This document shows positions 35,105 to 54,579 of a stretch of 64,000 nt of DNA, piece after piece. Location: the IMG/VR virus record IMGVR_UViG_3300047311_000323, positions 96,001 through 160,000 of that record. One strand, 5' to 3'. A program made the position numbers and the translations under genes. The notes beneath the pieces are model-generated. The model saw only the letters and a list, made by a program, of their open reading frames with translations. It did no database searches and was not told the DNA's origin. How positions within the stretch are numbered: the first letter of the stretch is position 1; each line of letters starts with the position of its first letter. The stretch is from a virus.

Positions 35105-35546
35105 TTTCAGGACGTTTCTTTACCGATTTATCATTGAAAGCCCAGACCGTTGCGCCACATTCGCAACCAACGTATTCTACTACGTTATCGCGGTCCATAG
35201 CTTCTATGCCATGTGATTTATGTAGGGCTGGACTATACGACTTAGCTTCGATGGCAAAGGAAAGGTCCCCCAAATTATGGAAGTATCTGGGCTGAAACTC
35301 CTGGTACCAGTTTGATACCATTCTCTTTACCCACTTTTTAGCAAACTTGGAGTAAATCAAGAAGTGCTTAATCTCTTTCCACTTGAAAGGCTGCATACTA
35401 GCATAGTAGTAATCTGGGCCCTTTCCGCATTCTTTACAGATAGCACGTGGTAAAAAGGTGGATGAGATATTGATTCTCACTACTTCTTGTTTAGAATTCA
35501 TGATTAAAGCCATTGCGCGATTAAGTTCTTTAGTCCTACTGTCCAT
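35055..35546 (-). CDS. hypothetical protein with Cys pairs
   Basis: CKEC and CECG. Confidence 0.6.
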   Translation of the reverse strand: MDSRTKELNRAMALIMNSKQEVVRINISSTFLPRAICKECGKGPDYYYASMQPFKWKEIKHFLIYSKFAKKWVKRMVSNWYQEFQPRYFHNLGDLSFAIEAKSYSPALHKSHGIEAMDRDNVVEYVGCECGATVWAFNDKSVKKRPEITNRKGRYKYPQKFVY

Positions 35547-36906
35547 TAATCAGTTGCCTCGCCCTTTCCACAATCTTCTTACGAATCCTATTAACATAGG
35601 CCATACCACCCATTTGATAGTGGGGAGGTACTCGAAGATGTGTTACAGTAACCGTTGTGCCCGGTCTTACGTCCTGCATATAAATCTTGGAAAATGTATA
35701 CTCTTTAACTTTAGATAGAAGAGAGTTCTTTGTATCTTGCTCAATTACATTAAGCAGCTTCCCAATGTAATATGGTTTGGCGTAAGTTCCCTTCCTACCA
35801 CCAATGTAGAAATCTTCAGTCCCATTTTTAACAACTAGCTTTTCATTCACCATGCCGTCAAAAATTGATATCTCATCAAAAATGCCAAGGTTAGCATCCA
35901 TCAATGTATCTATCTTCACTGGCTTTCTATTCTTGATCACAACAAACGGCAAAGACGCCTCTAACAAGGAAACATACTCTTGAAATACCTTGTGTTGAAA
36001 CCCCATATGACTATCAGTAGTATTTAGCAGATAGGCGACCATCTCCTCTGGGGATCTCTCCAAAAGATTGCCAAAAGCCAAGTAAACACATTGTTTATGT
36101 CTTACTGTCGCATTAGAGCTGCTGTACGCCGCATTGTTGCTTTGGGTTTCGATAATCTCTTTGATCTTCTCTACTTTGTCTTGTAAATCTTCAGCAATCT
36201 CTAGTTGGGTGTGGATATCAACGTCACGTGATTGAATGTTGTCTTTCAACGAAAAACCATCATGTGACGCATCCAGAATCAACTTCTCTGGGTTAGACTT
36301 AGAGGTGGGATGATGCATTTTACTCATCTCACTAACGGAACCAGAAAAGAAACAATCGAAATACGGACAAGAAACCGTATATGAATTATCTATCGGATGC
36401 GGGATGAATCTCTCACAATCCAGACATCGATATCCATTTTTATTATGACGATAGAATGCTCTAAAGAAATACGCACGCTTTGGATCGTTTATGTTGTTCT
36501 TTAGCTCTAGCTCACACTCATCACAATATAGTACTTTGTTGAAAAACAAAACCGAATATTCTTTGCCCAAGAAAACACATCCTGGGCAGATATACTCGGC
36601 TTTATGTTTGAGGTTCGGGGCAGCTAGCTTTTTACAAAAAGCGTTGACTATATAGAAGAGGTAATCATTGATCTCATCAATTGGGGAGCCATTGTTGATG
36701 AACGTAACAGAGCCAGTTCTCAACTCATCTTTCAGCTCTTCGATTAGAGCGCGCAAAGATAGTTGATTACCACTCTTGAAATGAATACGATGTAGGGTGG
36801 CAATTCCTTGTTCGCGTTCTCTTAGGAAATCTTCCACCAGAGAATCAACGTCCATTAAATTGAGCGAGCTTACAACAGCTTCCATTAGACTCCGAAAACT
36901 TGACAC
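35536..36906 (-). CDS. hypothetical multi-zinc-ribbon protein (TAG stop, backup TAA at 35530-35532)
   Basis: 456-aa ORF with CPGC, CDEC, CLDC and CPYFDC. Confidence 0.75.
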   Translation of the reverse strand: MSSFRSLMEAVVSSLNLMDVDSLVEDFLREREQGIATLHRIHFKSGNQLSLRALIEELKDELRTGSVTFINNGSPIDEINDYLFYIVNAFCKKLAAPNLKHKAEYICPGCVFLGKEYSVLFFNKVLYCDECELELKNNINDPKRAYFFRAFYRHNKNGYRCLDCERFIPHPIDNSYTVSCPYFDCFFSGSVSEMSKMHHPTSKSNPEKLILDASHDGFSLKDNIQSRDVDIHTQLEIAEDLQDKVEKIKEIIETQSNNAAYSSSNATVRHKQCVYLAFGNLLERSPEEMVAYLLNTTDSHMGFQHKVFQEYVSLLEASLPFVVIKNRKPVKIDTLMDANLGIFDEISIFDGMVNEKLVVKNGTEDFYIGGRKGTYAKPYYIGKLLNVIEQDTKNSLLSKVKEYTFSKIYMQDVRPGTTVTVTHLRVPPHYQMGGMAYVNRIRKKIVERARQLINGQ

Positions 36907-37868
36907 ACTTCAGTTGCGTTTGTATATGCCACCTGGAAACGCTCCATATTGCGTAAGTTATCGCGCAACAGGGCATCGCCCCTTCCTAACAAATTCTCAG
37001 CGCCTACACTATCCAGAATTACCTTGGAATCAACATGACTTGCAACTTTGCAAGCAATCCGAGCTGGGAAATTCGCTTTGATAGCCCCATTGACAACATT
37101 TACGGAGGGACGCTGCGTAGATAGTAGAATGCTCATGCGAGCGGCTCGACACTTCTGTGCCAAACGGCAAAGGCGTTCAAAAAACATATCACCCTTGTCT
37201 TGCATGATTAGGTCGGCAAACTCATCAATGATAATTAGAATTGGTTTTAGACTTTGAGGACTCCAACCAGCCCGGAGCTTTTCATACCTGTCCTCCATGA
37301 TTTCGTTCATGTTAGCAAGAAGCTCAATCACATCATCATAGTTATGATAGACTTGAGTATTACGAACTCCTTGATACTGACCAAACTCAATGCGCTTAGG
37401 GTCAATTAAGTACAGGTCTGCATCATTGTAGTTAAACACGTTGGCAATGATATTGTGCAACAATGTACTCTTACCAGAACCGGTAGTTCCAGCAACCAAA
37501 CAATGTGGATTGTCGAGCAAGTCAGTCCAAATCTTGGACCCGTCAACCGTCTGCCCTAGCAAGCAAACAAGGCCCCCAGAGGGAACATCATCATTCGTAA
37601 AGATATCAAACAGCTTGAGAGGCTTCTCACGAGGTGAGGCAAATTCCACACGAACAACACCTTGCTCGTGGAGAACTTTGATGCTCGGCTTGCTCTTCTT
37701 TAGGGCAAGCGAAATTTCATCACCATACTTCTGAATCTCCCGCACCTTAGCACGAGGGTGTAGTTTGAGATCGTAATACACATAGTTATCAACCTGATGC
37801 ATACTCAGACAAGTAGCCTTGATGTTGAAACTGCTTAGAATATGATTGAATTCTTGAACGGTGTCCAT
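36885..37868 (-). CDS. FtsK/SpoIIIE-family ATPase lacking a membrane domain
   Basis: PHCLVAGTTGSGKS, LIDPKRIEF, IIIDEFADL, AQKCRAA, TQRPS, RIA.KV and AENLLGRGD. Confidence 0.88.
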   Translation of the reverse strand: MDTVQEFNHILSSFNIKATCLSMHQVDNYVYYDLKLHPRAKVREIQKYGDEISLALKKSKPSIKVLHEQGVVRVEFASPREKPLKLFDIFTNDDVPSGGLVCLLGQTVDGSKIWTDLLDNPHCLVAGTTGSGKSTLLHNIIANVFNYNDADLYLIDPKRIEFGQYQGVRNTQVYHNYDDVIELLANMNEIMEDRYEKLRAGWSPQSLKPILIIIDEFADLIMQDKGDMFFERLCRLAQKCRAARMSILLSTQRPSVNVVNGAIKANFPARIACKVASHVDSKVILDSVGAENLLGRGDALLRDNLRNMERFQVAYTNATEVCQVFGV

Positions 37869-37914
37869 GTTCTACCCGTCAATATAATCCTACAAATAAA
37901 GAATGCAAGGGGTA

Positions 37915-38319
37915 TTAGAATTTTACAAATAGCCCGGTTTTTTCAGCAATAATTTTGCGAAGGTCATTTAGTGTAGGTTTTACTAATCCTACCGACTGCC
38001 CGACCTTCAACTCCATGGAGTCTACTGTTCCATGGGGAAGCTCAACGACCAAATCACTTACTTGAGTTCCGACGACCTGAGTAGAGTGAGGTTCGCCGTA
38101 ACAAATCTCAGCGACTTTACCCTTGTGACAAAACACAATGTCGAGTGGGCTCGGCGTGTTCTTCATCCAAAATCTATTAACGCTTGGGTAAGCATAGATG
38201 AACGACATCACGGGGGGTGGCCACTCTTGATGCATAAGTCCCTTCTGCTGCTCTTCAGACGAAATGGCTAGCAAGGTTGGGAAGACGTTATTGTGGATGT
38301 AGATGTAACCCTGTTCCAT
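37915..38319 (-). CDS. DUF192 family protein
   Basis: QQKGLM, FWMKNTPSPLDIVF and VVELPHG. Confidence 0.85.
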   Translation of the reverse strand: MEQGYIYIHNNVFPTLLAISSEEQQKGLMHQEWPPPVMSFIYAYPSVNRFWMKNTPSPLDIVFCHKGKVAEICYGEPHSTQVVGTQVSDLVVELPHGTVDSMELKVGQSVGLVKPTLNDLRKIIAEKTGLFVKF

Positions 38320-38325
38320 ATGTCC

Positions 38326-39711
38326 TTAGAAGAATGAATTCGAGGCCATCTCTGGCTTCTCGGAAAAGTACAGGGCCCTAGTCATCGTGCGCAATGCGGA
38401 CATTTGACGATTAACTTTAGAGATAGCTTCTGATAGTTTCTCTTGATCAAAACCCGCTTCCAAAAGATCCATCACTGCATCTAAATCTTGTCTTAGAGTT
38501 TCGATTAGATTGTAAACTTCTAGTCTAGCACCGGAGGTAGCTCCAGGAATTAGCTGATGTCTAGTCTTACCAAATGACTGAGCTTGTTTTTGTGGAAGGC
38601 TTTTGTGCTGCTGTACAATGTCTTTGAAAGACTGCCCGCTGGTACCTAACTCTTGGTTGGTTGCACCTACGGCTGAATTGTAAGACATCTGTAGAGCGTC
38701 AAGTTCTTTAGAGGTTGGCTTCCTACTTTTGGGACGAGCTTTCAATTGCTCCATTGCGGAAACAAAAGCTCCGAACTGAGGATTCTTAGAAATGGCACCA
38801 ATATAGTTTGCATTGGCCTGGTAGTCTTGAACTATGTTTGCAGCATCGGAAGCAGTGGGCATTTCTCCTGGTGGAGCGCCTACTTCTTCTGGATCGCGGC
38901 CTTCATCGATAGCTCTTTGTCTTCTTGACTCTGGGTCTTCAATTACGCCACCAGGTTCTTTTACCTCTCCTGGCCTGAGAGCCTTGTAAGAACTAAAAAG
39001 TCTGTTGACAATGTTCCAATAATTCCAAACTGAGGTCATCATCTTATGAGAGCTTTCAATACTGCTGCCAGATGACTTCACAATTTCTTTGTGTAGGGCC
39101 TTGAGAGTCTTGTAAGCCTTTGCGCAGTTATCTAACATCGTCATGCGTAAACGACGCATACGGGCAGCTTCTCCAAATCCATATTTAGGATTGAATAGTC
39201 TGGTAACAAAACGGGTAACTGGATTAGAGGCTTGTGACTCCAAAGAGTATTTTTCCTCCATCTCAATAGCTAGCTTAATCAGCTCAGATTTTTTGATTGA
39301 AGCCTCTAGTCCCAGAGATAATTGCTTGGACAAATCTTGTTGTGGTTTTGGTGCCTCTGCGGCTGGAGGAGCTTTGCCAGGCTCTGGAAGTGGTAAATTC
39401 AATTGCTTAGGTTGTCTCTGACGACGATTCTTAGCGTACTCTAGCTGCTCTTGAATAACAGAATTGCCCTTGTTGACCAACTCTTGGAAATCACCCGACA
39501 AAGAACCAATGATAGTTGCAGGATCGGCTGGAATAGGCGTAGTAATACGAGAACGTTCCTTGAAAAACTTAGAAGGCCAACCATTCATTGTCTTTTTGAA
39601 GTGAATCAAATCGTTAATGAAAGTCGACACTTCTTTGTTCCAAGAAGCCTTGTTTTGTCGTAATCTCTCCTGAACTGGGTCAGTGGATGGTCTGCGCGCA
39701 GTCTTTTCCAT
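38326..39711 (-). CDS. hypothetical protein
   Basis: 461-aa ORF. Confidence 0.75.
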   Translation of the reverse strand: MEKTARRPSTDPVQERLRQNKASWNKEVSTFINDLIHFKKTMNGWPSKFFKERSRITTPIPADPATIIGSLSGDFQELVNKGNSVIQEQLEYAKNRRQRQPKQLNLPLPEPGKAPPAAEAPKPQQDLSKQLSLGLEASIKKSELIKLAIEMEEKYSLESQASNPVTRFVTRLFNPKYGFGEAARMRRLRMTMLDNCAKAYKTLKALHKEIVKSSGSSIESSHKMMTSVWNYWNIVNRLFSSYKALRPGEVKEPGGVIEDPESRRQRAIDEGRDPEEVGAPPGEMPTASDAANIVQDYQANANYIGAISKNPQFGAFVSAMEQLKARPKSRKPTSKELDALQMSYNSAVGATNQELGTSGQSFKDIVQQHKSLPQKQAQSFGKTRHQLIPGATSGARLEVYNLIETLRQDLDAVMDLLEAGFDQEKLSEAISKVNRQMSALRTMTRALYFSEKPEMASNSFF

Positions 39712-39731
39712 GAAAAGATATGTAATTATTG

Positions 39732-40178
39732 CTATTTGATGATTTGAACCGTCTTTTTCTTAAGGGTTCCTAGCCTAAGATTTCTTTTTGCTTTTCGTTC
39801 CTCTGACAGCTTCTTTTCCAGTTTCTGGTTAAAACTGACGATTGCTTGCCAAGAAAACCCTAATCTGTTGTCTAAATCACCTTCGTGAAGCCCAATGATA
39901 AATCCAGTATTATCAATACTGTAAGAATCAATAGAAATTCGTTGGTACCCCTGATCTTCTAACAAGGATACCAACGACTCCACAACATCACTCCAACAAA
40001 TCCGACCTCCGCTTTTAGGGGAGGATCTTTTAAGAGTAGCTTTGTAACCTGCTTGTGGTAACAAACTATCACAAAGCTTCTTAAAGTCTTCTAATGTAGT
40101 ACCTTCGGGACCACTAAAGAAATAGTGCTCCTGCCAGTCGTAGTCAGAATATACTAGGTCAAAAACGTTGTCGCTCAT
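39732..40178 (-). CDS. hypothetical protein (TAG stop, backup TAA at 39726-39728)
   Basis: ORF overlapping the upstream gene's stop. Confidence 0.65.
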   Translation of the reverse strand: MSDNVFDLVYSDYDWQEHYFFSGPEGTTLEDFKKLCDSLLPQAGYKATLKRSSPKSGGRICWSDVVESLVSLLEDQGYQRISIDSYSIDNTGFIIGLHEGDLDNRLGFSWQAIVSFNQKLEKKLSEERKAKRNLRLGTLKKKTVQIIK

Positions 40179-40888
40179 CTCTTTAAGTTATCTATCACCT
40201 GCTGACATTTTTCCAAAGAAAACACATTACCAGTGCGCACTCCAGATTCCATATCAATATAGTATCGCTTATTATTCGTATTGTTGCTTTCAATCAAATC
40301 AACAATCTTAGCTACATTCTCTGGCTTAATTCCGCCAGCATAACCAGTGAAATGCGTTTCATCAGGTGCAACTATCTCTGTAATCTCTCTGCCAAAACCA
40401 CCGGACCCATCATGCAAAATGTTGATAGGAAAGATGTTCCCTTTGAGAAATACTTCCATGAACTTAGCTTTAGTCTTGTTTTGCTGCAAGATAATCGAAT
40501 GACCATATTGCTTTAGTACCGACCAAAGACGTTCCGACAGTTTAAGATGATCTGGGTAATCCTTGATATTCAGATTCAGTTGAATGCGCTGAGCTTTTTC
40601 ACAAAGCTCCATAACGTCTTTCTCTTTTTCCAAATACCTTTCAATCACCGAGCCGCAAAGATGAAGAGAGCTGTGTACGTAAGTAGTGGCAGCGCTCTTC
40701 TCTAAGAACTCTTTACAGAATTTGTAAGAGGGGTATCTGTCGTAGTTACCAACTGATTTAGAATCGCTAAACAGAACACTCCACTCTACGAATCCTAGCC
40801 CCGCATAAGCGTTACTAATTCGTTCAAGCTCGGCAAAGTTGGTCTTTTCATCTACGCCAACAAATGATACCAGAGATAGATTTTTCAT
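40175..40888 (-). CDS. TIM-barrel protein, phosphoribosylanthranilate isomerase-like
   Basis: FVGVD, EWSVL, SLHLCG, IQLN, LHDGSGGFG, GYAGGI.PENV and IDMESGVR. Confidence 0.6.
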   Translation of the reverse strand: MKNLSLVSFVGVDEKTNFAELERISNAYAGLGFVEWSVLFSDSKSVGNYDRYPSYKFCKEFLEKSAATTYVHSSLHLCGSVIERYLEKEKDVMELCEKAQRIQLNLNIKDYPDHLKLSERLWSVLKQYGHSIILQQNKTKAKFMEVFLKGNIFPINILHDGSGGFGREITEIVAPDETHFTGYAGGIKPENVAKIVDLIESNNTNNKRYYIDMESGVRTGNVFSLEKCQQVIDNLKR

Positions 40889-41484
40889 ATGATATGATCG
40901 ATGATCCCGTATTCTTTGGCCGCCTTAGCGTCCATCCAAGTTTCGGTTTGACAGTCTGCCTTCACTTTTTCAAAAGTTTGGCCGGTATGCTTCGCCATAA
41001 CTTTTATCATTGCATCGTTTTCTGAGTCCACAAATTCCAAATAATTCTTGCTGTTAGTAAAGTCAAACCCTGGAATTGGGAATGTAAACTGCGAGCCGTG
41101 AATCATAACCTTGGAACTACGGAGAGCGTAACGCTTTCCCTTACTACCAGCCGCTAAAATCCATGCTCCAGCAGAATAAGCTTTGCCAATCAAAATGGTT
41201 TTGACTGGTGAGCGTACCATTTGCATAACATCATAGATGTTAGCCATACCAGTATTGGCTCCGCCATTGGTATGAATGTAGATACTGATTTCTGACTCGG
41301 GGTCTTGGTTATCGTAGTACAGCATCATAGCTGATAGCTCGGCTCCCAATCTATCCGTCACGCCTTCAGAAATGAAAATGGTTCGGCTCTTAGCTAGCTT
41401 GACATAACTTTCACCATAACCCATTGGCATTTGCATGCGGAAATGCTCGTGCTCATGATTATCTTGTTGGTCTTTCTTATTCAT
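40885..41484 (-). CDS. clpP: ClpP protease subunit (catalytic Ser and His retained)
   Basis: RTIFISEGV, IYIHTNGG, GKAYSAG (Ser), MIHG (His) and AKEYGIIDHI. Confidence 0.88.
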   Translation of the reverse strand: MNKKDQQDNHEHEHFRMQMPMGYGESYVKLAKSRTIFISEGVTDRLGAELSAMMLYYDNQDPESEISIYIHTNGGANTGMANIYDVMQMVRSPVKTILIGKAYSAGAWILAAGSKGKRYALRSSKVMIHGSQFTFPIPGFDFTNSKNYLEFVDSENDAMIKVMAKHTGQTFEKVKADCQTETWMDAKAAKEYGIIDHII

Positions 41485-41495
41485 GATAGCTTACC

Positions 41496-42086
41496 TTACT
41501 TATTAAACGAAATGATCTTATCAATGAAACCATACTTCATAGCATTCTTGGCATTTAAGAAAACTCGACGATCAAAATCCTTCTTGATTTGAGCAACTGT
41601 TTTCTTGGTAGTCTTTGCTAGAATTTCCATTAAGCGTTGATTGTCCAACTTCTCTTGCTCGAAAACGGCATGAGCGCCCGGCAAATCCGTATGCATATGG
41701 AAACTATGAACTAATTGAGTGGCAGAAATTACAGCGTGTGGAGTGGCGAATCTCATGCCAGGCGTTCCACCGGCCAATAAGATTACAGCCTCATCCATTG
41801 CTGCACCAATACATACTGTTTCAATTGGCGCATGAATCATATCCATAACATCGTAAATCATAAGAGAGTTACGAATATCGCCACCGTGAGTATTGATGAA
41901 TAGCGTAATTTTGCTTTCTGAATCTTCGTGATCTTTCAATAGTAAAGTGGCCACAATATCTGAAGCCAAATTATCATCGAGGTAGTCTGTCAAAAACAGA
42001 ATACGATCGCTTGATAGTTTTTGGTACACATCAACCGGCACTTCGCCATGTTCAGTCTGTTCAAGTACTAATGTATTCAAAATCAA
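41496..42086 (-). CDS. ClpP-like subunit lacking catalytic residues (ClpR-like)
   Basis: DVYQKLSSDRILFL, FINTHGG and YGFIDKI; nucleophile motif reads GAAMDEA and the MIHQ position reads ISATQ. Confidence 0.82.
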   Translation of the reverse strand: MILNTLVLEQTEHGEVPVDVYQKLSSDRILFLTDYLDDNLASDIVATLLLKDHEDSESKITLFINTHGGDIRNSLMIYDVMDMIHAPIETVCIGAAMDEAVILLAGGTPGMRFATPHAVISATQLVHSFHMHTDLPGAHAVFEQEKLDNQRLMEILAKTTKKTVAQIKKDFDRRVFLNAKNAMKYGFIDKIISFNK

Positions 42087-42436
42087 AACCTCTTTCTTTG
42101 CTTCTCTTCTGCTTCTCGTTCTTCAACGCAAGAAACACAACTTTGAAAATGTGGATTGCTTAATAGTCTTTTCTCGTGGATTGGTTCGCCGCAATCTTGG
42201 CAGAGTCCATAAGTTTTATCTTCGATACGTCTGAGAGCCGTCTCAATTTGAGATAACTTAGCAGAGTTGCGTGTATTGAACTGATTAGCTAAATCCATAA
42301 GTATATGGGCCTGAATCTCGTCCGTCTCATCGCCTTCAGTATCTACTTCGGTCTCTCGGTCAGATGCTTGTTTTAGCAATTCCTTTTGCTGTGCTAAAAG
42401 CAAGTCTTTTATCTTTTTCAAAAACGATTTATTCAT
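42083..42436 (-). CDS. dksA: DksA/TraR C4-type zinc finger protein
   Basis: Coiled coil with GDETDE; ALRRIEDKTYGLCQDCGEPI..KRL...P....CVSC. Confidence 0.88.
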   Translation of the reverse strand: MNKSFLKKIKDLLLAQQKELLKQASDRETEVDTEGDETDEIQAHILMDLANQFNTRNSAKLSQIETALRRIEDKTYGLCQDCGEPIHEKRLLSNPHFQSCVSCVEEREAEEKQRKRF

Positions 42437-42822
42437 TATAGGATCCTCAAATCGGAAACAGGTACTACAATAGTTCCCTGTGGTTTGGGCTGCTTTTGAT
42501 CATCCACCCTTTTATGGAAGATCAGATAAGCATGGTTTTCCGGCTCCTTCAACCAGAAAGCGGTAACTTCCCAGTCGTTATAAATCGCTTTTTTAGACTG
42601 GTCTGCAAACCTTAGATTGCGCGTGTTTTCCATCACCTGCGCTCTTTTGGGCCTGTATGGCCCATGGATATTCTTAGCTTTGAATTTCATCAGTTCAAGA
42701 AACAAAGAAGCCGCTTCATTGTGGGAAGCAGCCTTAATTTCCTTTGAGACTGGATCGTTTGGCTTATTTGGATCTATCCCAACGCAAACGTACACTACCG
42801 GTCGAGGACCTCTTTTACCCAT
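42436..42822 (-). CDS. hypothetical protein
   Basis: ORF in operon-like run. Confidence 0.65.
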   Translation of the reverse strand: MGKRGPRPVVYVCVGIDPNKPNDPVSKEIKAASHNEAASLFLELMKFKAKNIHGPYRPKRAQVMENTRNLRFADQSKKAIYNDWEVTAFWLKEPENHAYLIFHKRVDDQKQPKPQGTIVVPVSDLRIL

Positions 42823-42823
42823 C

Positions 42824-43150
42824 TTAATCCCCCTTCAGTTTCTTGTCAAGGTCCAGGGACTCGCACAATTTTTTGCGAATAGGCTTGGCCAAAAATAATC
42901 TCATCACTCGGTGTCCCGGAGATTCCATTACACGATGGAATCGTACATCATGATATTTGCGTGGTGGTGTATCCTTCAACATCAATCTTCCAAAATTGCC
43001 AATCTTAATCTCTTTGCCAGCTTTCAAATCTTTAGTCATCTCATCAAATAGAATGCTAATTACGCTAAATACATGATAATGATGAATCAACCTCTTGATT
43101 TTACGATTCACATAATGCCAGAGGTCACGCTTACTTATACTTAGCGACAT
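42824..43150 (-). CDS. HU/IHF-like DNA-binding protein
   Basis: LKAGKEIKIGNFGRL and arm region followed by F.....I. Confidence 0.7.
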   Translation of the reverse strand: MSLSISKRDLWHYVNRKIKRLIHHYHVFSVISILFDEMTKDLKAGKEIKIGNFGRLMLKDTPPRKYHDVRFHRVMESPGHRVMRLFLAKPIRKKLCESLDLDKKLKGD

Positions 43151-45216: not shown

Positions 45217-45234
45217 CTGAAATTCCTACGATCG

Positions 45235-45243
45235 TATATATCA
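45235..45243 (-). promoter_or_regulatory. TGATATATA recurrent motif
   Basis: Exact copy 18 nt before ATG 45216, at the head of a long minus-strand run. Confidence 0.45.
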
Positions 45244-45401
45244 TAACTCCCCCTATAGATCCCCCATCGCGTTGTCGAGATCAAGTTCGAAATTGATATT
45301 CTTTGGGGAATTGCCTTAAAAATACTATTTCAAGAAAAGCTACCAATAAAAACATATCTTTGTGCGGTTTATGGCTATTCCGTTACCTCTAGGATCTACT
45401 A

Positions 45402-46233: not shown

Positions 46234-46266
46234 TAATACAGTATTTAAGCTATACGAGGAGCTGTT

Positions 46267-46686: not shown

Positions 46687-46994
46687 TCCTTACTAGGATC
46701 CCTTCGGACATAAAAGTCCAAGCTTCTGTATTGTAAAGCCATATTCAATGACTCGTATACGTTGATATTGTCTTTTAGAGATAGCGCAGTTAACGTCAAT
46801 AAAATCTCGCCTAACGTGCGAGATTTTACTTTTTGGCGATCTTCTTCTGGTATTTCTGTCTTGGCATCAATAACTTTGTAAAGACTAATCTTCATCATCA
46901 ATTCTTCGATGATCTGCTGAACGCTAGCATTAGCGCTTCCGTCTTTTTGAAATTCCTCAGATTGTTCCCAGAGTTTCTCGAAGTGAACAGACAT
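46683..46994 (-). CDS. hypothetical protein, possibly MazG-like helical fold
   Basis: IIEELM...LGEILLTL..L.....I...E.L pattern. Confidence 0.45.
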   Translation of the reverse strand: MSVHFEKLWEQSEEFQKDGSANASVQQIIEELMMKISLYKVIDAKTEIPEEDRQKVKSRTLGEILLTLTALSLKDNINVYESLNMALQYRSLDFYVRRDPSKD

Positions 46995-46995
46995 C

Positions 46996-47190
46996 TTAAT
47001 CTTCCAATTCTTTGTTATCCATTAATGCAATCTGAAGTTGCTCATCACCCTTATCAGAGATAAAGACAAGAAACACCGCGCCCATAGAGCAGTCAATCAA
47101 AACCGGAGCTTTGATCTTGCCAACATAAAAAACCTGGCCATCAATATCTTTTCTAGCCTTCAAGTCAATCGTAACGTTCTTGTTAGACAT
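46996..47190 (-). CDS. small hypothetical protein
   Basis: GGAG SD before ATG 47190. Confidence 0.65.
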   Translation of the reverse strand: MSNKNVTIDLKARKDIDGQVFYVGKIKAPVLIDCSMGAVFLVFISDKGDEQLQIALMDNKELED

Positions 47191-48031
47191 TGTTTCTCCG
47201 CATATCTTTGACATATTCAGCCATAGTTCGTTCGAGCGCCTCTTCGGTGTCACTCATCTTGAATCCAGCAGCCCTAAGCTTATCCGTATTAAGGATACAG
47301 TTAGAGCGCTTAGCTACTGTCATTTGGTCCAGTTGGCCCTCAGTGATAATTTCAAACTGATGCTCTGGTACATATTTCTGGTATTCTTGCATAATACGTG
47401 CCGCAGTCAATGGCTGCGGATTAGCAACATGAAAAATACCGCCAGGTCTATTAGTCGCGACCCAATCAATACAGCGGGTTAGATCGCTCATAAGAGTCAT
47501 GGAGTTAGGGATATCAATTACTTGTTTGTATCCCCTAAGTTTATTAATCAGATTGCGAGGAACGTCCTTGTCAGAGACAGGCATTCTAATGCGCAATGTA
47601 GTGACGTGAGGCATAGGGGCCAACATTAGGTCACAAGAGTACTTAGTTTTAGAGTAGAATGATGCTGGGTTAGCAAAATCCGTTTCTTTCCATCCTGGGT
47701 CCACAGCATATGATGTGTGACCTTTGTATGGCGAAGGGCCAAAATAGATACATCCAGATCCAACCTGAATCATGTGGATACCTAAATCGGCACACGCTTC
47801 TGCTATGAGAAGTGGGAGCGTTACGTTACCAGAGACCGTCTCAATCTTATGAGACTCGCACCAATCTACGTTTGGTCTACCAGTTTTACCCAAGCAGTTT
47901 ACCACAACGTCTGGCTTGTAATTCTCCAGGACTGAAATGATATAGCCTTTGCTTAAGCTAAAACGCTCAGTAGTTTTCTGATACGGTAGATGGTCGGCCA
48001 CAAAGCCAGAGCCAAGTGTCAATACTTTCAT
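47183..48031 (-). CDS. NDP-4-keto-6-deoxyglucose 3,5-epimerase/4-reductase (NRS/ER type; RmlD substrate-binding family)
   Basis: GSGFVA, KPDVVVNCLGKTGRPNVDWCESHK, SGCIY, SFYSKTK, LRIRMP and RSNCIL. Confidence 0.85.
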   Translation of the reverse strand: MKVLTLGSGFVADHLPYQKTTERFSLSKGYIISVLENYKPDVVVNCLGKTGRPNVDWCESHKIETVSGNVTLPLLIAEACADLGIHMIQVGSGCIYFGPSPYKGHTSYAVDPGWKETDFANPASFYSKTKYSCDLMLAPMPHVTTLRIRMPVSDKDVPRNLINKLRGYKQVIDIPNSMTLMSDLTRCIDWVATNRPGGIFHVANPQPLTAARIMQEYQKYVPEHQFEIITEGQLDQMTVAKRSNCILNTDKLRAAGFKMSDTEEALERTMAEYVKDMRRNNV

Positions 48032-48072
48032 TCTTCCTCAAATCGTTAATACAGTAATCGTGTGTTACTATA

Positions 48073-48810
48073 TCATTGATTTTGAGTCTTCGTGTAGAAG
48101 TAATTGTTTACAAAGGCAATGGACTCATGAGTTCCCGCATCAGACCATAGGCCACCAATTTTTGAATAAGACAAGTTGCCATCTGCTAGATAGTGGCGGA
48201 TGATGTCAGTAATCTCATACTCACCACGGGCGCTTGGCTTCAACCTTTCGAAGTATTCGAAATACTGTGGCGTAAATAGATAACAGCCAGAGATAGCCAG
48301 ATTCTTGTAGTTAGGATCCAGTTCTTTAGGTTTTTCCTCAATTTTTGCAATAGAGCCGTCCTCGTCAATAGAACAAACACCAAAACGCTTTAGTTCTCGG
48401 TGGTGGGATAATAGAATTTGCGCTCTTGGATTAGTCTTCCAATCTGGATTAGACCAGTGTGGCGTATTCTCAAAGATATTATCCCCAAGGATTACCGAGA
48501 AATCGGAGTCGTCATAGACGAATCTTTTGCACAAACTGATAGCGTGGGCGATGCCTTTAGGCTCGCTCTGATACACGTAGTTGAGATTCAGCCCATATCG
48601 GCTGCCATCTCCGAGATAACCCGCGACTTGAGCATAATGGTTGCCGCCCAAAATGACAGTTACGTCCTGGCAGCCCATATTCTTCAATGATTCGATAGGG
48701 TAATCGATGATGAATTTTCCGTTGACACCCAGCAAATGCTTATTTACAACATGCGTTAGTGGCAACAATCGTGAGCCGGTTCCCCCGGCCAGGATGATTC
48801 CGTTCTTCAT
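48073..48810 (-). CDS. rmlA: glucose-1-phosphate thymidylyltransferase
   Basis: GIILAGGTGSRLLPLT..VNKHLL, Q.EPKGIAHA, ILGDNIF, EEKP, PSARGEYEITD and WSDAGT. Confidence 0.92.
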   Translation of the reverse strand: MKNGIILAGGTGSRLLPLTHVVNKHLLGVNGKFIIDYPIESLKNMGCQDVTVILGGNHYAQVAGYLGDGSRYGLNLNYVYQSEPKGIAHAISLCKRFVYDDSDFSVILGDNIFENTPHWSNPDWKTNPRAQILLSHHRELKRFGVCSIDEDGSIAKIEEKPKELDPNYKNLAISGCYLFTPQYFEYFERLKPSARGEYEITDIIRHYLADGNLSYSKIGGLWSDAGTHESIAFVNNYFYTKTQNQ

Positions 48811-48832
48811 AACAGATCATATAACACTTTAA

Positions 48833-48907
48833 TGGTATCCCCGGTTGGACTCGAACCAACATAAGCCGCCTTAGGAGTGCGGTGCCCATCCCTTGGACCA
48901 CGGGGAC
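48833..48907 (-). tRNA. tRNA-Arg(CCT)
   Basis: Cloverleaf GTCCCCG...CGGGGAT-A-CCA; anticodon loop CTCCTAA; T-loop TTCGAGT. Confidence 0.9.
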
Positions 48908-48916
48908 ATCTCCCTA

Positions 48917-49453
48917 TTATGTCTTTTTAGTAGGAGAAACGATCATGCTCATAATCTTACCCTCAAGGGAAACTTGGGGATTTGGAGCTACTTGACCATC
49001 TAACCGCTTGAGAATCCACTCAAGCTTCTCTCTTCCAATATTCGCATGGACAATTTCACGACCACGGAAACGCACAGCAAACTTAACTCGATCACCATCA
49101 GCCAAAAACTCTTTAGCTTGAGCTACTTTGTGATTCAAATCATTTTCATCAGTGTTGGGACGGAAGGTTAGTTCCTTGAGTTCTTGCACTTGCTGACTCT
49201 TTTTGTTAGCTTGTGCTTTCTTCTTTTCCTCATACTTAAACTTACCATAATCCATAATCTTACAGACTGGTGGTAGGGCCTTTGGATTGATCTCTACTAG
49301 ATCAAGACCTTGATCTTGAGCCATCTTTTGGGCTTCAAAAGTATTCATGACACCAGCATTAGTGCCATCGGAAAGGACCACTCGAATCTGTGGGACTCGA
49401 ATGAATTTATTGATACGAACTCGATATTCACGCTGCTGATTATTTGTTTGCAT
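48917..49453 (-). CDS. infC: translation initiation factor IF-3
   Basis: RINKFIRVPQIRVV, GLDLVEI.PKA.PPVCKIMDYGKFKYE.KKK, KELTFRP.TD.ND and RFRGRE; ATG 49453. Confidence 0.95.
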   Translation of the reverse strand: MQTNNQQREYRVRINKFIRVPQIRVVLSDGTNAGVMNTFEAQKMAQDQGLDLVEINPKALPPVCKIMDYGKFKYEEKKKAQANKKSQQVQELKELTFRPNTDENDLNHKVAQAKEFLADGDRVKFAVRFRGREIVHANIGREKLEWILKRLDGQVAPNPQVSLEGKIMSMIVSPTKKT

Positions 49454-49862
49454 TCTCTTTTGTTTTCTCCTGTAATACTTCTTTTGCTGCTTCCAGCAAA
49501 TCTTCCAGTCTGTTATTTGTGTAAAACTCGCCTGGAATCCCACGAGTATTGTAAACTTTGTACCCCATGCCTGTCAAGGTCTCGAAAACTTTTTCATGGG
49601 TTGGGTTAATCATTGTTTTATCCAAGCCAACGCCGATGGCTAAAGCACAAAAATTCCCGTTCTCGTAATTGTAGCTATCTAGAACCATCTCGCCAGGATA
49701 ATCAATTACCCTTTGGATTTGTTCGGCAGTCAATTGTCGTAGACCATTCTTAAGACCAACTTTACGTGGGTCATCAAAATACTCTGAATGCTTAGCCACT
49801 CTATCTTTCTCTGGCTTAGCTAAGTACTCGAATATCTTAGGATCAATTCTACTAGAACTCAT
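49440..49862 (-). CDS. hypothetical protein
   Basis: ORF in operon-like run. Confidence 0.65.
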   Translation of the reverse strand: MSSSRIDPKIFEYLAKPEKDRVAKHSEYFDDPRKVGLKNGLRQLTAEQIQRVIDYPGEMVLDSYNYENGNFCALAIGVGLDKTMINPTHEKVFETLTGMGYKVYNTRGIPGEFYTNNRLEDLLEAAKEVLQEKTKENANK

Positions 49863-50341
49863 TTGGTTTCCGTAGGCTTCATGAATGGACCTTCTAATTT
49901 GGAAACGTCTATGCCGTACCGTTTAAGGCCCGACAAGTCTAGCTTCCAATCTATCTTGCTACGCTCCCGCCAAACTTTGAATGCTTCGGAAATTTTTGCT
50001 TGAGCTTCCTTCTTCTTGAAGCCATTAATCTTCATGAAGTGTTTGAGGGCTTGCTCTTCTTTGCCTTGTACTCTGGCAAATCCAAAATGTTTGACCATGT
50101 GGCAATCAGGGCACAACGCAATCATGCCAGCCAAATGTTGGATGGCAGTCCGCTCATTGTATTCCCAAATCTCATGACATTCTACTGGATGTGCTGGACC
50201 TTCCCCGCCACATATCTGGCAGACATTATAGGCCCGGTCTGCAACCATACCTCGTAAAGCATTCCATTGCTTTGCAGTTAGTACAGCTCGAACGTTATTC
50301 ATCCACGAGGTCCGAGGGACCAATTCAATAGTTAATTTCAT
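49859..50341 (-). CDS. HNH-like nuclease-fold protein
   Basis: CQICG, ECHEIW and LCPDCHMVKH. Confidence 0.7.
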   Translation of the reverse strand: MKLTIELVPRTSWMNNVRAVLTAKQWNALRGMVADRAYNVCQICGGEGPAHPVECHEIWEYNERTAIQHLAGMIALCPDCHMVKHFGFARVQGKEEQALKHFMKINGFKKKEAQAKISEAFKVWRERSKIDWKLDLSGLKRYGIDVSKLEGPFMKPTETK

Positions 50342-50604
50342 CGACGCCTGAATAGTAATTTCTCTGCTCTTTCTTCGCCTAGCTTTTCCTTTAGCACAAT
50401 TTCGGCTCGTTGTAGGAAAGCCTCTCTACGGGTTAGTTTATCTTTACCCCAGTAGGAAATAGATAGAGCACCAATAATGCTGGTAGGAGATAAAGCATCC
50501 AAATCAGCATGATCAAACCACAAATCTACAAATGCAAAATCACCATCACTAAGATGTTCTTCCAGAAGGGCTATTACACCTTCTACCTGCGCTTGGTCAT
50601 TCAT
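50338..50604 (-). CDS. hypothetical protein
   Basis: ORF overlapping both neighbours. Confidence 0.6.
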   Translation of the reverse strand: MNDQAQVEGVIALLEEHLSDGDFAFVDLWFDHADLDALSPTSIIGALSISYWGKDKLTRREAFLQRAEIVLKEKLGEERAEKLLFRRR

Positions 50605-50783
50605 TCAGATTTGCTCAATCGGTAAATAAGCGAAAACATTTCGTTTTGCAAGGATTCAGTAGAAACAGGGGTACCATCATCGTTAGCCAATTTGGTCATA
50701 CCGGTTTTGTGCCTGTTATCTAATTCTGCACGAATTTCTCGTACACGAGTCGTCATTTCTGTTCTAGTCATAAACTGGGTCAT
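50601..50783 (-). CDS. small hypothetical protein
   Basis: ORF directly downstream of a TGATATATA motif. Confidence 0.55.
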   Translation of the reverse strand: MTQFMTRTEMTTRVREIRAELDNRHKTGMTKLANDDGTPVSTESLQNEMFSLIYRLSKSE

Positions 50784-50789
50784 ACTGAC

Positions 50790-50798
50790 TATATATCA
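50790..50798 (-). promoter_or_regulatory. TGATATATA recurrent motif
   Basis: Exact copy 6 nt before ATG 50783. Confidence 0.45.
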
Positions 50799-50813
50799 TT
50801 TTAGTAGTTTTAG

Positions 50814-50887
50814 TGCGCCGTGTGGGATTTGAACCCACGACCGTTCGTTTTAGAGGCGACCGCTCTGCCAGGCTGAGCTAACGGCGC
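50814..50887 (-). tRNA. amber suppressor tRNA (anticodon CTA) no. 1
   Basis: Perfect 7-bp acceptor GCGCCGT/ACGGCGC, D-arm GCTC..GAGC, anticodon loop CT-CTA-AA, T-arm GTGGG-TTCAAAT-CCCAC; A73; CCA not encoded; anticodon stem has only 3 Watson-Crick pairs. Confidence 0.8.
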
Positions 50888-50897
50888 ATTGAGTGCA

Positions 50898-51047
50898 TTA
50901 CTGCTTATTTGCTGAGTCTACTTGTATTACAGCTTTAGTAGCAGTTTCGCGCCCGTTCTTTTCGCGCCATTCATCAAGAAGGCGCCAGCTCACTCCTAAG
51001 ATTGTACCACCCACCAACGACAATAACATAAATTCAACTAGCCACAT
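50898..51047 (-). CDS. small membrane protein (49 aa)
   Basis: Hand-translated MWLVEFMLLSLVGGTILGVSWRLLDEWREK...; hydrophobic N-terminus; below track cutoff. Confidence 0.5.
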   Translation of the reverse strand: MWLVEFMLLSLVGGTILGVSWRLLDEWREKNGRETATKAVIQVDSANKQ

Positions 51048-51054
51048 GATTACC

Positions 51055-52065
51055 TCAACTTAATGCCATCATCCTATCAATGGATATTCTGGCTTGGTTC
51101 ATTAATTCTTCTGACATATTGATCTGCGGTGTCAGGTCTCTCAAAGAGAGATATACCTTCTCCAAGGTATTCTTCTTCATGAACGGACACTCGTTGCACG
51201 CACAACTTGCTTCAGGCGGTGCAGGAATGAAAATCTTATCTGGAGCGGCCTTCTGCATTTGATGCAAAATACCTGCTTCTGTTGCTACAATGAATTCTTT
51301 GTTTGGACTGCTGACAGCATATTTGAGAATGCCAGTCGTCGATCCAATGAAGTCTGCCATCTTCAAGATAGGTTCTTCACATTCGGGGTGAGCCAAAACT
51401 AGTGCATTAGGATTACGAGTCTTGATACCAATCAGTTTGCGCTCACTGAATGTCTCATGAACGATGCAGGCTCCTTGCCACATGATCATAGGGATGCCAG
51501 TTTTCTTCATGATATAGTTGCCAAGATTTCTATCTGGAGCAAAGAGAATCTCCTTGCCAGACTTGGCAGCTTCACGAACAATCTTTTCTGCATTGGATGA
51601 CGTACAAATGTAATCTGACAATGCTTTGACTTCAGCCGAACAGTTGATGTAACTGACTACCACTGAATTGGGGTGCATGCTCTTCCAAGCGGCGAATTTA
51701 TCAGCAGGGCAACCATCTGCCAGAGAACAACCAGCTTCCAAGTCAGGAAGGACTACAGTTTTCTGAGGGGAGAGGATCTTGGCTGTCTCAGCCATAAAGT
51801 GCACGCCAGCAAAACAGATAACATCAGCATTAGTCTTTGCAGCTTCTTGGGAGAGTTGTAAGGAATCTCCGATGAAGTCAGCAACATCTTGAATTTCAGA
51901 ATCCTGATAGTAGTGGGCCAAGATAACGGCATTGCGTTCTTTTTTGAGGAAAGCAATTCTCTCTTCAATGTCGAAGATCGATAGTCCGTCATACGTGCCA
52001 TCAGCCTGGGCCTTACGTTTCGCTTCTTTGAATTCACTTGCTGAGAAAATAGGTAGTTTATTCAT
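51055..52065 (-). CDS. nadA: quinolinate synthase NadA
   Basis: [50 protein letters not shown] and C.CNECPFMK. Confidence 0.96.
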
Positions 52066-52231
52066 TGTACTTTTCCAAAAAGTGTTGCACAGCCAAACTC
52101 AAATCATCTTCTGATTTGTTGTAGTTTTCGTTGGATACATGTGCGCCATCACTCCAGGCAGCGTAAAGATACCCAGCATCATATGCCTGCTTAATGAGTT
52201 TCTCGAAATCTTCTTTAAAATCTTGTTTCAT
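52058..52231 (-). CDS. small hypothetical protein (57 aa)
   Basis: Hand-translated [23 protein letters not shown]...; overlaps the nadA start. Confidence 0.45.
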
Positions 52232-52305
52232 TGGCTCCCGCAGAGGGGCTCGAACCCCCTTCTTCCGTTTTAGAGACGGCGCTCTACCAGTTGAGCTATG
52301 CGAGA
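52232..52305 (-). tRNA. amber suppressor tRNA (anticodon CTA) no. 2
   Basis: Acceptor TCTCGCA/TGCGGGA, G73, encoded CCA; anticodon arm CCGT-CTCTAAA-ACGG; T-loop TTCGAGC. Confidence 0.88.
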
Positions 52306-52309
52306 ATAG

Positions 52310-52430
52310 GGCCCCAGGGTTGGATTCGCACCACCCTCCGTTCGGTTAAATACCGACTGCTCCTTCATAACCTTACTTTCTTTCCCACCACGTTCGTGGG
52401 CGCTTTCGGGTTTTACTGAGCTACCGGGGC
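52310..52430 (-). ncRNA. tRNA-like RNA with a roughly 45-50 nt structured insertion in the D-loop
   Basis: Acceptor GCCCCGG/CTGGGGC, D-stem GCTC/GAGC around a 55-nt loop, anticodon-like arm GTCGG-TATTTAA-CCGAA, T-like loop TGCGAAT. Confidence 0.6.
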
Positions 52431-52437
52431 ATATCTG

Positions 52438-52761
52438 TTATTCTAAGGTTGAAATAATGTCGGCAGGCCCTTTATATTTTGGATTCCATCGATATTTACC
52501 AACGGCTTCCTTATTATCATTTGGAGATTCGTACTCTAATGCTCCGATAGCAACCAAAGAGTTCAAAAGCGCAAACAATGTATCACCCAATGGATTTGGT
52601 TCTCGTATGGTGCTTTTGGCACCATGCCAAGTATCATGATCAAAAGGTGCGCCATACTCCGGCCAAAACCCCAAAGTTGCTCCTAGTTCATAGGCGGCTG
52701 CATCCCAATAGACCCAGCCAGCTAAGCGTTCTTGAAGTGATGCAATACTAGTCTTTTTCAT
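52438..52761 (-). CDS. hypothetical protein
   Basis: 107-aa ORF. Confidence 0.65.
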   Translation of the reverse strand: MKKTSIASLQERLAGWVYWDAAAYELGATLGFWPEYGAPFDHDTWHGAKSTIREPNPLGDTLFALLNSLVAIGALEYESPNDNKEAVGKYRWNPKYKGPADIISTLE

Positions 52762-52919
52762 AGGTCACACGCACATGATTTGTTACAATTTGCACACTCA
52801 GAAACGAAGCACTCTTCACAGAAGTCTTCCGACTCACAAGTGTGATCTGGGCAGAAAAGCGATGGTGAATCGCAGCATGCTCCAGAACATGGGCACAAAT
52901 CATTATCCTTCTTGCTCAT
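52758..52919 (-). CDS. small Cys-rich, metallothionein-like protein (53 aa, 12 Cys)
   Basis: Hand-translated MSKKDNDLCPCSGACCDSPSLFCPDHTCESEDFCEECFVSECANCNKSCACDL; its TGA overlaps the next ATG. Confidence 0.6.
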   Translation of the reverse strand: MSKKDNDLCPCSGACCDSPSLFCPDHTCESEDFCEECFVSECANCNKSCACDL

Positions 52920-53142
52920 CGTCGTCTTCCTCGGCCCCTCTTTTCATAAGGGCATTCAATTCTTCACGTGGAATATCGGGCCAATTATCAGGTCTTCCAT
53001 CTTTAGGAAGTGGGAAAATAGCTCCAGCCTCTTTATCATGGAAAATGCAAAGCAATCCTGCTTTACCTTCATGAACATAAACGCCAGTGGGCATACCACA
53101 AAAACATTCAGGCCCACGCTCTTTATCAATCCATTGACTCAT
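52903..53142 (-). CDS. hypothetical protein with CFC...CIFH metal-binding pattern
   Basis: 79-aa ORF overlapping both neighbours. Confidence 0.6.
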   Translation of the reverse strand: MSQWIDKERGPECFCGMPTGVYVHEGKAGLLCIFHDKEAGAIFPLPKDGRPDNWPDIPREELNALMKRGAEEDDDEQEG

Positions 53143-53489
53143 TTTCCACCTCTCAAAGCTAGGGGCAATCGGCTACAAAGCTTTTTAGACTTAGGACCGG
53201 GAGCCAAAGCAATCGCCGTAATCTGATTATCAATATCAGGCTCTCTGAATACAGAAAAACTAATATCATGGAACGTAGCCTGTTTCGCTAAGTCCATCAG
53301 TTCCTGCTCATCAGTCACTGACAACAATCCAAGGTAATTGGATTGCTCAAACCACAACTTATCAATCTCCGGATGATCTGCCGTAAACTGACGCAAAGCA
53401 TGCATGCTTTGAACTGCTTGATATCCTGGTTCCAAATCTGCACGAGTAATAACATAAAGCTTGTCGCCTTCTTTAACCTATAGACACAT
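53139..53489 (-). CDS. Pth2-like peptidyl-tRNA hydrolase with in-frame TAG at codon 4 (read-through required)
   Basis: GGAGA SD then ATG TGT CTA TAG GTT AAA GAA GGC GAC AAG...; KLYVITRADL.PG.QA.Q..HA, V.DE.EL and EPD...ITAIALAP...L..LPL Pth2-type motifs. Confidence 0.75.
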
Positions 53490-54069
53490 GATTATCTCCA
53501 AATAGTTTGCGGCAAATTGCTTTACCGCGCTTGTTAATTTGACTCCACTTAATCTTGAATGATTCAGATTCAATGCCGCCAAACATCTTTGCATTGCTAT
53601 GCACCTCAGCTAGCCCGGCCAACAACAATGTCGTTGCCTCTCGGTGCTGACAAAACTCATCTACGTCTACTGCCTTCATGGTATGAATCTTCATATCATG
53701 CAGAATGAGTTTAGCAATAGTCTTATTAGAACTAATCCTCAGCCATGTCTGATAAGACATCCAAGGATGGTTAGGGAAATGTCTACGACCCCGTTCATCA
53801 ACAGTTAGACAGTAGGGCTTGCCGCAATCATGAAAGACTGCGTAACCCGCAATAATATCGTCTGGAAGCAAGGAGGCTAACAACTGCTCTCGATACTCAC
53901 TCATCCAGTCGGGTAATCTCCAACCTTCGCCTATCTGGCCGGTTTTCAAAAATGAAATCAATTCAAAAATGTGCTCTTTAACAGAGACGCCGTGTTGGTA
54001 CACGGATTGGCTATCCGTTTGGGGACAGCTTTGCATATCAGAAATTAAACGATTCTATAGGTAACTCAT
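53473..54069 (-). CDS. HD-domain phosphohydrolase with in-frame TAG at codon 5 (read-through likely)
   Basis: ATG AGT TAC CTA TAG AAT CGT TTA ATT TCT GAT ATG...; H...HDCGKP....HFPNH, like the HD domains of tRNA nucleotidyltransferases; track start 54036 is the downstream alternative. Confidence 0.72.
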
Positions 54070-54076
54070 AGTGCTT

Positions 54077-54085
54077 TATATATCC
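54077..54085 (-). promoter_or_regulatory. GGATATATA recurrent motif
   Basis: Near-exact copy 7 nt before ATG 54069. Confidence 0.45.
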
Positions 54086-54087
54086 AG

Positions 54088-54579
54088 TTATTGATTGATT
54101 ATTTCTTCTAACAAAACTCTAGAATTCATTAACTCTAGTGGTTTGTGCGTATCTAGTTCCCAAGTTACATGGTGACGTGTGCCGCCCATATAACGCTCAA
54201 AATGTAGCATTGTCGTGCCATTACCCTTATCCTTTTTTAGAACAGGGACAACAGTAGCAATCAGCTCACCTTCTGTAACTTTATATCCCACTTTGATATG
54301 TGGCAGTGGTTTGATTTCACAATAACCAAGCACACAATGAGCGCCTTCAATTAGAATAGACCAAGTCTCTAACCACCATGGACTTGGAGGATTAGCATTG
54401 GGCCCAGTGAAGTTCTCAATATGAACTACCTCACCATCCTCAATAGCCTGAATCTCTTGGCCGAAGCCACAATAGATGTCTACGCCTGGGTGGTAGTAGA
54501 AGGAACGTTTGAAAGCAAAATCGCCCACTGCTCCCTCTTCGGGAATAGCGGGCGTTTTATCTCTAAGTGGCCATTTCAT
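54088..54579 (-). CDS. M23 family metallopeptidase (possible cell-wall hydrolase)
   Basis: HPGVDI, AIEDGEV, VKVGYKV..GE.IA.V and MLHFE. Confidence 0.8.
   Translation of the reverse strand: MKWPLRDKTPAIPEEGAVGDFAFKRSFYYHPGVDIYCGFGQEIQAIEDGEVVHIENFTGPNANPPSPWWLETWSILIEGAHCVLGYCEIKPLPHIKVGYKVTEGELIATVVPVLKKDKGNGTTMLHFERYMGGTRHHVTWELDTHKPLELMNSRVLLEEIINQ

Follow-up and report, generated by a model that had tools for sequence, protein, structure and literature searches.

The sequence examined here, hereafter the window, is a 64,000-nucleotide stretch (bases 96001-160000) of the 198,396-base virus record IMGVR_UViG_3300047311_000323, and the subject is how its genes end in, or otherwise use, the stop codon TAG. 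The window has a G+C content of 43%, and its genes are densely packed and lie for the most part on the minus strand. Our own simple gene caller, which combines codon log-odds, a ribosome-binding-site bonus and interval scheduling, recognizes 91 genes, with 57 ending in TAA, 30 in TGA and 4 in TAG. One of the four TAG-ended frames (55142-55375, plus strand) is not a gene, since it is antisense to a full-length phage tmRNA. Once it is dropped, the tally of the first-pass annotation, 3 TAG ends among about 90 genes, is upheld, and its three TAG-NNN-TAA sites (Table 1) read letter for letter as described on the minus strand. All three genes are judged to be real: that ending at site 1 has 35 relatives, that at site 2 has orthologues in four relatives, and that at site 3 encodes an HNH/endonuclease VII-like protein, as identified by PHROG endonuclease matches.

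The CheckV completeness of the record is 45%. We read it as part of a 450- to 480-kb huge phage that would use the standard code but handle UAG specially, and we assign this reading as a whole, together with the survival of only harmless TAGs set out below, a probability of roughly 55%. The IMG/VR relatives of this phage are huge phages too, 250 to 480 kb in size, and those records with a completeness of about 60% or more have 53 to 65 tRNA genes. The nearest of them is G001, a complete 480-kb genome in which the counterpart of the 449-amino-acid protein ending at site 1 is 83% identical. Among GenBank phages, no nucleotide match was found, and the top protein match for the DnaE-like polymerase is approximately 31% identical. 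The comparison set consists of eight relatives taken whole and about 100 further loci, the present record being G000; these relatives are metagenome assemblies, and kinship among gene ends was handled by deduplication only.

Table 1. Features considered in this analysis. Positions are those of the window unless marked otherwise.
Feature	Position	Strand	Remarks
Site 1	35530-35538	-	TAG 35538-35536, GAC, TAA 35532-35530; end of 449-amino-acid gene (35536-36885)
Site 2	39726-39734	-	TAG 39734-39732, CAA, TAA 39728-39726; end of 148-amino-acid gene (39732-40178)
Site 3	54557-54565	-	TAG 54565-54563, AGA, TAA 54559-54557; end of 178-amino-acid gene (54563-55099)
Fourth TAG-ended gene	genome 169847-171088, outside window		TAG CAA TGC GGT GAG GAT CTG TGC TAT TAA
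CUA tRNA, type A	50813-50887	-	ARAGORN; Rfam tRNA, 59.7 bits; acceptor GCGCCGT, discriminator A73
CUA tRNA, type B	52232-52305	-	ARAGORN; Rfam tRNA, 49.2 bits; U1-A72, G73, encoded CCA
Pth2-like gene	53139-53489	-	Start ATG TGT CTA TAG, TAG at 53478-53480; frame continues
198-codon gene	53473-54069	-	Upstream neighbor of Pth2-like gene; start ATG AGT TAC CTA TAG, TAG at 54055-54057
163-amino-acid metallopeptidase-like gene	54088-54579	-	Weak PHROG endolysin and metallo-endopeptidase matches; start overlaps site 3
RF2 genes of relatives	G001 L056:6809-7900; G010 L116:11160-12305; G008 243715-244800; loci L238-L252		
tmRNA gene	55143-55494	-	Rfam RF00023, 100.6 bits over full-length model
tRNA genes of the Thr/Arg/Glu set	55524-55836; 48833-48907	-	Window copies
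tRNA genes of the Thr/Arg/Glu set	genome 197341-198397		
IF3 homologue	48917-49543	-	Both Pfam domains
NadA quinolinate synthase	51055-52065	-	Between the two CUA tRNAs
Thg1-like tRNA-His guanylyltransferase	56042-56830	-	

TAG has been purged as a terminator. Across the whole record, it ends 4 of 208 solid genes (1.9%). Its share of stop triplets is 24% in the two alternative frames of genes and 30% in frame over the 30 codons past gene ends, which amounts to a 12- to 15-fold scarcity confined to terminators. Close relatives have the same bias (2.2 to 5.7% of terminators versus 23 to 29% elsewhere), and in the complete, distant relative G009, TAG use is near neutral (15.8% of terminators versus 17 to 24%). 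Low G+C content does not explain the depletion, because the G+C content is 43%.

tRNAs with the anticodon CUA, which would read UAG, were found in all nine genomes examined, and the window has two of them (types A and B). Type A, which also occurs in G002 and G009, is 76 to 92% identical among G000, G001, G003 and G005; type B is 99% identical to the copy in G001, and the second CUA tRNA of G002, G003 and G005 has a different body. When eight CUA tRNAs are aligned, the cloverleaf is retained, with compensatory (double) changes in 9 of the 19 pairs; the CTA anticodon is present in all eight and the loop CTCTAAA in seven (CCCTAAA in G008). No paralogue above approximately 75% identity was found that might represent the parent tRNA. 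In the type A tRNA of the window and its orthologues, positions 31 and 39 are never paired (C.A, C.U or A.A), which leaves three to four pairs in the anticodon stem and enlarges the loop to an effective nine bases.

Among classical bacterial amber suppressors are supE tRNA-Gln, supF tRNA-Tyr and su7, which is derived from tRNA-Trp, and tmRNA helps bacteria cope with suppressor-driven read-through. Like the classical suppressors, the CUA tRNAs here are class I tRNAs with a CUCUAAA anticodon loop, and a tmRNA gene lies 3 kb away; type B, moreover, shares U1-A72, G73 and G10 with tRNA-Gln. Unlike them, they are native, conserved phage genes and not mutants of sense tRNAs. The phage's aminoacyl-tRNA synthetases are possible candidates for charging the CUA tRNAs. 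Genes for TrpRS (TIGR00233) and TyrRS (TIGR00234) adjoin at genome positions 194828-196758, outside the window, and at L042:4308-6899 in G001, and G008 has a GlnRS/GluRS-type enzyme in their place. Trp and Tyr each have codons that a single change separates from UAG, and in the complete G001 no tRNA-Trp(CCA) is detected by ARAGORN.

Two adjacent genes in the window have an in-frame TAG just after the start, at codons 3 to 8, and in neither is there a usable start downstream of the TAG. The Pth2-like gene begins ATG TGT CTA TAG GTT AAA GAA GGC GAC AAG CTT TAT, and the Pfam PTH2 domain spans residues 10 to 102 of the read-through product, beginning nine residues ahead of the first canonical start. 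This arrangement (ATG, one to three codons and then TAG) recurs in 8 of 8 genomes and in 21 of 21 further loci (29 in total; L184-L204), at identities as low as 46%. The TAG is invariant although the flanking codons vary, that which follows it being GTT, ATT, ATC, GTA, ACG or, in one genome, ATG. In 19 of the 21 further loci, the gene has a CUA tRNA no more than 3 kb away. In the 198-codon gene, for which no Pfam match was found, the in-frame TAG is present in 6 of 6 genomes, and the stretch from the TAG to the following ATG encodes a conserved peptide. An ATG followed by a short leader and TAG is not generally in excess before the genes of the record (3 of 40, compared to 9 of 103 for TAA and 12 of 63 for TGA), and only the Pth2-like gene and its neighbor qualify as TAG-gated. 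Gene callers using translation table 11 will cut both of them short. A feedback or sensor circuit is suggested, in that a hydrolase of tRNA-linked substrates may itself depend on UAG decoding to be made.

Release factor 2 (RF2) terminates translation at UAA and UGA, not at UAG. It is encoded by three of the four near-complete relatives (G001, G010 and G008) and absent from the complete G009, which is also the genome with near-neutral TAG use. The factors of G001 and G010 score above the TIGR00020 cutoff, and those of all three genomes have the SPF and GGQ motifs and lack PxT. The phage RF2 is a single open frame with no programmed frameshift, and it recurs in 15 loci of the clade, including contigs from the samples that yielded G003 and G005.

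Because the CUA tRNAs are conserved, relatives encode RF2 and the in-frame TAGs are invariant, UAG is very probably decoded, and its reading as an amino acid during some phase of infection is well supported on these sequence grounds. The premise of the first-pass annotation, that UAG is read during infection, finds strong independent support in these three lines of evidence and in the depletion of TAG from terminators. Amino acid insertion at UAG is hinted at, indirectly, by the conserved in-frame TAGs and by CAG/TAG and CAA/TAG exchanges between G000 and G001.

Decoding of UAG does not extend to recoding throughout the proteome, which was considered and rejected: coding density is 0.924 versus 0.928 under the two codes. 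Across the genomes compared, treating TAG as sense raises coding density by at most 2.3 points and leaves that of the close relatives unchanged. No Pfam or PHROG domain spans a TAG among 13 candidate TAG-containing open reading frames, in which the internal TAGs fall at gene boundaries. Mid-gene TAGs facing sense residues in relatives were encountered at 16 sites, but the control treating TGA as sense returned 143; this alignment test is uninformative because the TGA and TAA controls gave far more matches. In-frame TAGs are not concentrated in structural or lysis genes and are conserved only in the Pth2-like hydrolase and its neighbor.

Recoding of TAG to Gln (code 15) is known from crAss-like, Lak and Agate phages (Borges et al., bioRxiv 10.1101/2021.08.26.457843; jumbo phage survey, PMC13037316), and the route proposed for it leads from stop depletion to a suppressor tRNA and then to in-frame stops (Borges et al.). 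The present phage resembles code 15 phages in possessing its own CUA tRNAs, in the RF2 of its relatives, a factor that code 15 phages encode often but not always, and in its strong depletion of TAG terminators. It differs from them in lacking proteome-wide recoding, in-frame TAG being limited to codons 3 to 8 of two nonstructural genes, and it differs from the low-G+C background of code 15 in its 43% G+C content and in a TAG usage that is conserved across the clade. Its state fits the stage that Borges et al. describe as a standard-code relative with suppressor tRNA, and the loss of TAG terminators, as something that would follow from UAG decoding, fits the route that they propose.

The first-pass annotation had also stated that every TAG stop is backed up by TAA exactly two codons later. 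This applies to the window (3 of 3) but not to the record (3 of 4): the fourth TAG-ended gene has no TAA at +2, and universal backup at this position is therefore false for the genome. Read-through of the fourth gene would add nine residues. A TAA at +2 follows 3 of the 4 TAG-ended genes in the record and 4 of the 204 others (0.02), giving a P value of 9.3e-5 by Fisher exact test and of 0.0037 after Bonferroni correction for 40 tests (10 offsets by 4 codon sets), although both the +2 position and the codon were picked after the data were seen. The earlier assessment that three such sites exceed chance thus survives correction within this record, but only four genes underlie it, and relatives do not reproduce it.

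The three sites in the window have different histories. At site 1, orthologues of the gene end mostly in TGA or TAA. A gapless alignment with G001 places TAG opposite CAG, GAC opposite AAA and TAA opposite the real TGA stop of G001, and because the TAA faces that stop, the +2 stop would be the older, shared one. The TAG is one transition away from a Gln codon. Site 3 falls inside the first eight codons of the next gene, the metallopeptidase-like gene, whose N terminus (MKWPLRDK) is conserved in G001, G003 and G005. At the corresponding position, relatives have CTT CGT GAT AAG, and the TAA is already contained in the Asp-Lys codons GAT AAR. The TAA at site 3 therefore preexists, locked in by the Asp-Lys codons that the overlapping gene conserves, and a synonymous switch of an Arg codon in that gene, from CGN to AGA, created the TAG. 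As read from these alignments, the TAA at sites 1 and 3 is shown to be older and the TAG to be a recent point change just upstream. The HNH gene is lineage specific, with no orthologue found in close relatives; its place ahead of the peptidase-like gene is taken in G001, G003 and G005 by another small gene, with an ATGA overlap.

At site 2, G003 has TAG CAA TAA TAA and G004 has TAG TAA TAA, while G001 and G002 have TAA at the position of the TAG. No recurring regulatory motif that might account for site 2 was found around TAGCAATAATTACATAT. A backup that is younger than, or conserved together with, the primary stop is thus not seen at sites 1 and 3, and coconservation occurs only at site 2. 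In the fourth gene, AAG TAG CAA corresponds to AAG CAA TAG in G001 (150820-152064), such that the TAG is kept but shifted by one codon; if TAG specified Gln, both genomes would read Lys-Gln-Gln. A promoter-like TGCTATAAT follows the TAG of this gene.

Stop codons and the distances to the next in-frame stop, when tabulated over the relatives, bear out the rarity of TAG in the record and its close relatives but reveal no clade-wide excess of short backups. Among 57 solid TAG-ended genes in the four close relatives that have two CUA tRNAs, 12.3% have a TAA or TGA at +1 to +3, compared to 16.5% of other genes (P = 0.85), and the median read-through after TAG is 17 codons, compared to 14 to 20 for other genes. 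When only genes with orthologues are considered, the corresponding values are 5 of 35 TAG-ended genes and 16.8%. In this subset, TAA occurs at exactly +2 in 4 of 35 TAG-ended genes versus 1.9% (P = 0.005), one of the four being the orthologue of the site 2 gene. A pooled set that excludes the present record contains, after removal of near duplicates, 278 TAG ends and 4548 others. The frequencies of TAA at +1, +2 and +3 after TAG are 4.0, 4.7 and 4.7%, compared to 3.4, 2.8 and 3.7% (P = 0.06 at +2), and there is no excess of TAA or TGA either at +1 to +3 (14.4% versus 17.5%; P = 0.92) or at +1 to +5 (24.8% versus 26.8%). Selection for fail-safe termination, as the first-pass annotation had proposed, is contradicted in the clade by this lack of excess, and only the present record differs.

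In the view that we favor, the phage uses the standard code, is equipped for amber decoding and has purged its TAG terminators, and the surviving TAGs would be harmless either way. The CUA tRNAs, with RF2 in relatives, would let UAG be decoded during infection, and if UAG is decoded as an amino acid, the loss of TAG from terminators would be the consequence. The leftover gene-end TAGs would be costless whether or not they are read, three of them lying two codons and one of them nine codons before a UAA, and they may arise next to older stops, by CAG-to-TAG change at site 1 and by the synonymous Arg change at site 3. With the TAA older at no fewer than two of the three sites, the pattern is best read as one in which only harmless TAGs survive, not one in which TAA was recruited as backup; the exact +2 spacing is probably accidental, and we have no mechanism for it. 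Several observations weigh against this view. There are only four TAG-ended genes in the record, the polarity of the CAG/TAG difference at site 1 depends on a single relative, and at site 2 the TAG stands where the ancestral stop was and is followed by a conserved TAA, which suits a fail-safe better. RF2 was not found on the present 45%-complete record, and the expression and charging of the CUA tRNAs are predicted from indirect evidence. Finally, relatives with the same tRNA pair retain many conserved TAG-ended genes with extensions of 8 to more than 30 codons, so a strict filter that spares only harmless TAGs is not visible there.

Three other explanations bear on these data. Chance and history might suffice, TAG being the rarest stop and the three TAG-NNN-TAA sites being coincidences of unrelated origin with no selection downstream. 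We regard this as possible but rather unlikely: it accords with the lack of TAA or TGA excess after TAG in relatives (at +1 to +3 or +1 to +5), with the differing histories of the three sites, with the post hoc choice of position and codon and with the lack of fail-safe selection in eubacteria (Ho and Hurst 2019, PMC6764699), but it is hard to square with the Fisher probability (9.3e-5, or 0.0037 corrected for 40 tests), with the weak echo in close relatives (4 of 35 versus 1.9%; P = 0.005) or with a 12- to 15-fold, terminator-only depletion that base composition does not produce. The fail-safe explanation holds instead that UAG is leaky and that a TAA at +2 was positively selected and retained for each TAG-ended gene. 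Tandem stop codons have been reported as a fail-safe against read-through in yeasts and ciliates, and the in-frame stop soon after a leaky stop, present three times here as TAG-NNN-TAA, is similar. The +2 TAA in 3 of 4 TAG-ended genes, the retention of the tandem form of site 2 in G003 and G004 and the independent support for UAG decoding all speak for it. We nevertheless consider it improbable, given that sites 1 and 3 had their TAA before their TAG, making two of the three TAAs original and not added, and that the enrichment is limited to one offset in one genome, when +1 and +3 should be enriched too. Nor is there a cumulative excess over the 278 TAG ends of the clade, and the fourth gene has kept its TAG in G001 without a close backup. 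Positive selection of the +2 TAA as a fail-safe is unproven.

It is also conceivable, but very improbable, that the CUA tRNAs are inactive in phage translation and serve as decoys against host anticodon nucleases or as weapons against host translation, the rarity of TAG mirroring host or lineage. Whole isoacceptor sets (four Thr and four Arg) are compatible with replacement of host tRNAs, and G009 has a CUA tRNA yet ends 15.8% of its genes in TAG. A decoy would leave unexplained the invariant start-proximal TAG in two genes, to which a CUA tRNA is linked in 19 of 21 loci, as well as the RF2 of phage relatives and the retention of an invariant CTA anticodon, in a near-invariant loop, across divergent tRNA bodies.

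The neighborhood of the CUA tRNAs is rich in translation genes (Table 1). The tRNAs of the record include all four Thr anticodons (CGT, AGT, GGT and TGT), four for Arg and two for Glu, the joint presence of AGT and GGT being unusual. The tmRNA, whose tag frame encodes ANDNAFAMAA followed by UAA, was missed by ARAGORN and sits between the cluster of four tRNA-Thr genes and the HNH gene. An 11-kb IMG/VR contig (3300046747_000500; L237) matches the final 132 residues of the polymerase at 100% identity and stops short of the TAG sites; from this identity, a near-identical phage has been sampled elsewhere. No solid open reading frame is present in the 6.2 kb at the start of the record (genome 1-6284, outside the window), where the only frames are 30 to 63 codons long and score weakly as coding; four of these end in TAG.

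On present evidence, bacteria-like systems do not evolve fail-safe stops under high read-through, in agreement with the test and rejection of additional fail-safe stops in eubacteria by Ho and Hurst (PMC6764699). Stop codon recoding in phages is already known, and the stage between the standard and the recoded state has mostly been inferred from low-G+C relatives. The clade described here (250 to 480 kb) has a full amber toolkit, purged TAG terminators and in-frame TAG at only one conserved pair of gene starts, and it makes testable the idea that a suppressor tRNA reshapes terminator use before recoding spreads. We tentatively go one step further, at odds clearly short of even, and suggest that UAG may serve in this clade as a dedicated regulatory codon, distinct both from an ordinary stop and from an ordinary sense codon, read by the phage CUA tRNAs and ignored by the phage RF2. 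If so, UAG would gate the Pth2-like hydrolase and its neighbor, whose synthesis would report or feed back on suppressor activity. The residual gene-end TAGs would then be the first neutral sense TAGs at C termini and may mean Gln, as the CAG/TAG difference at site 1 and the codon exchange seen in the fourth gene would suggest, and the clade would stand at a stable, long-lasting intermediate stage of codon reassignment, with a genome of 43% G+C.

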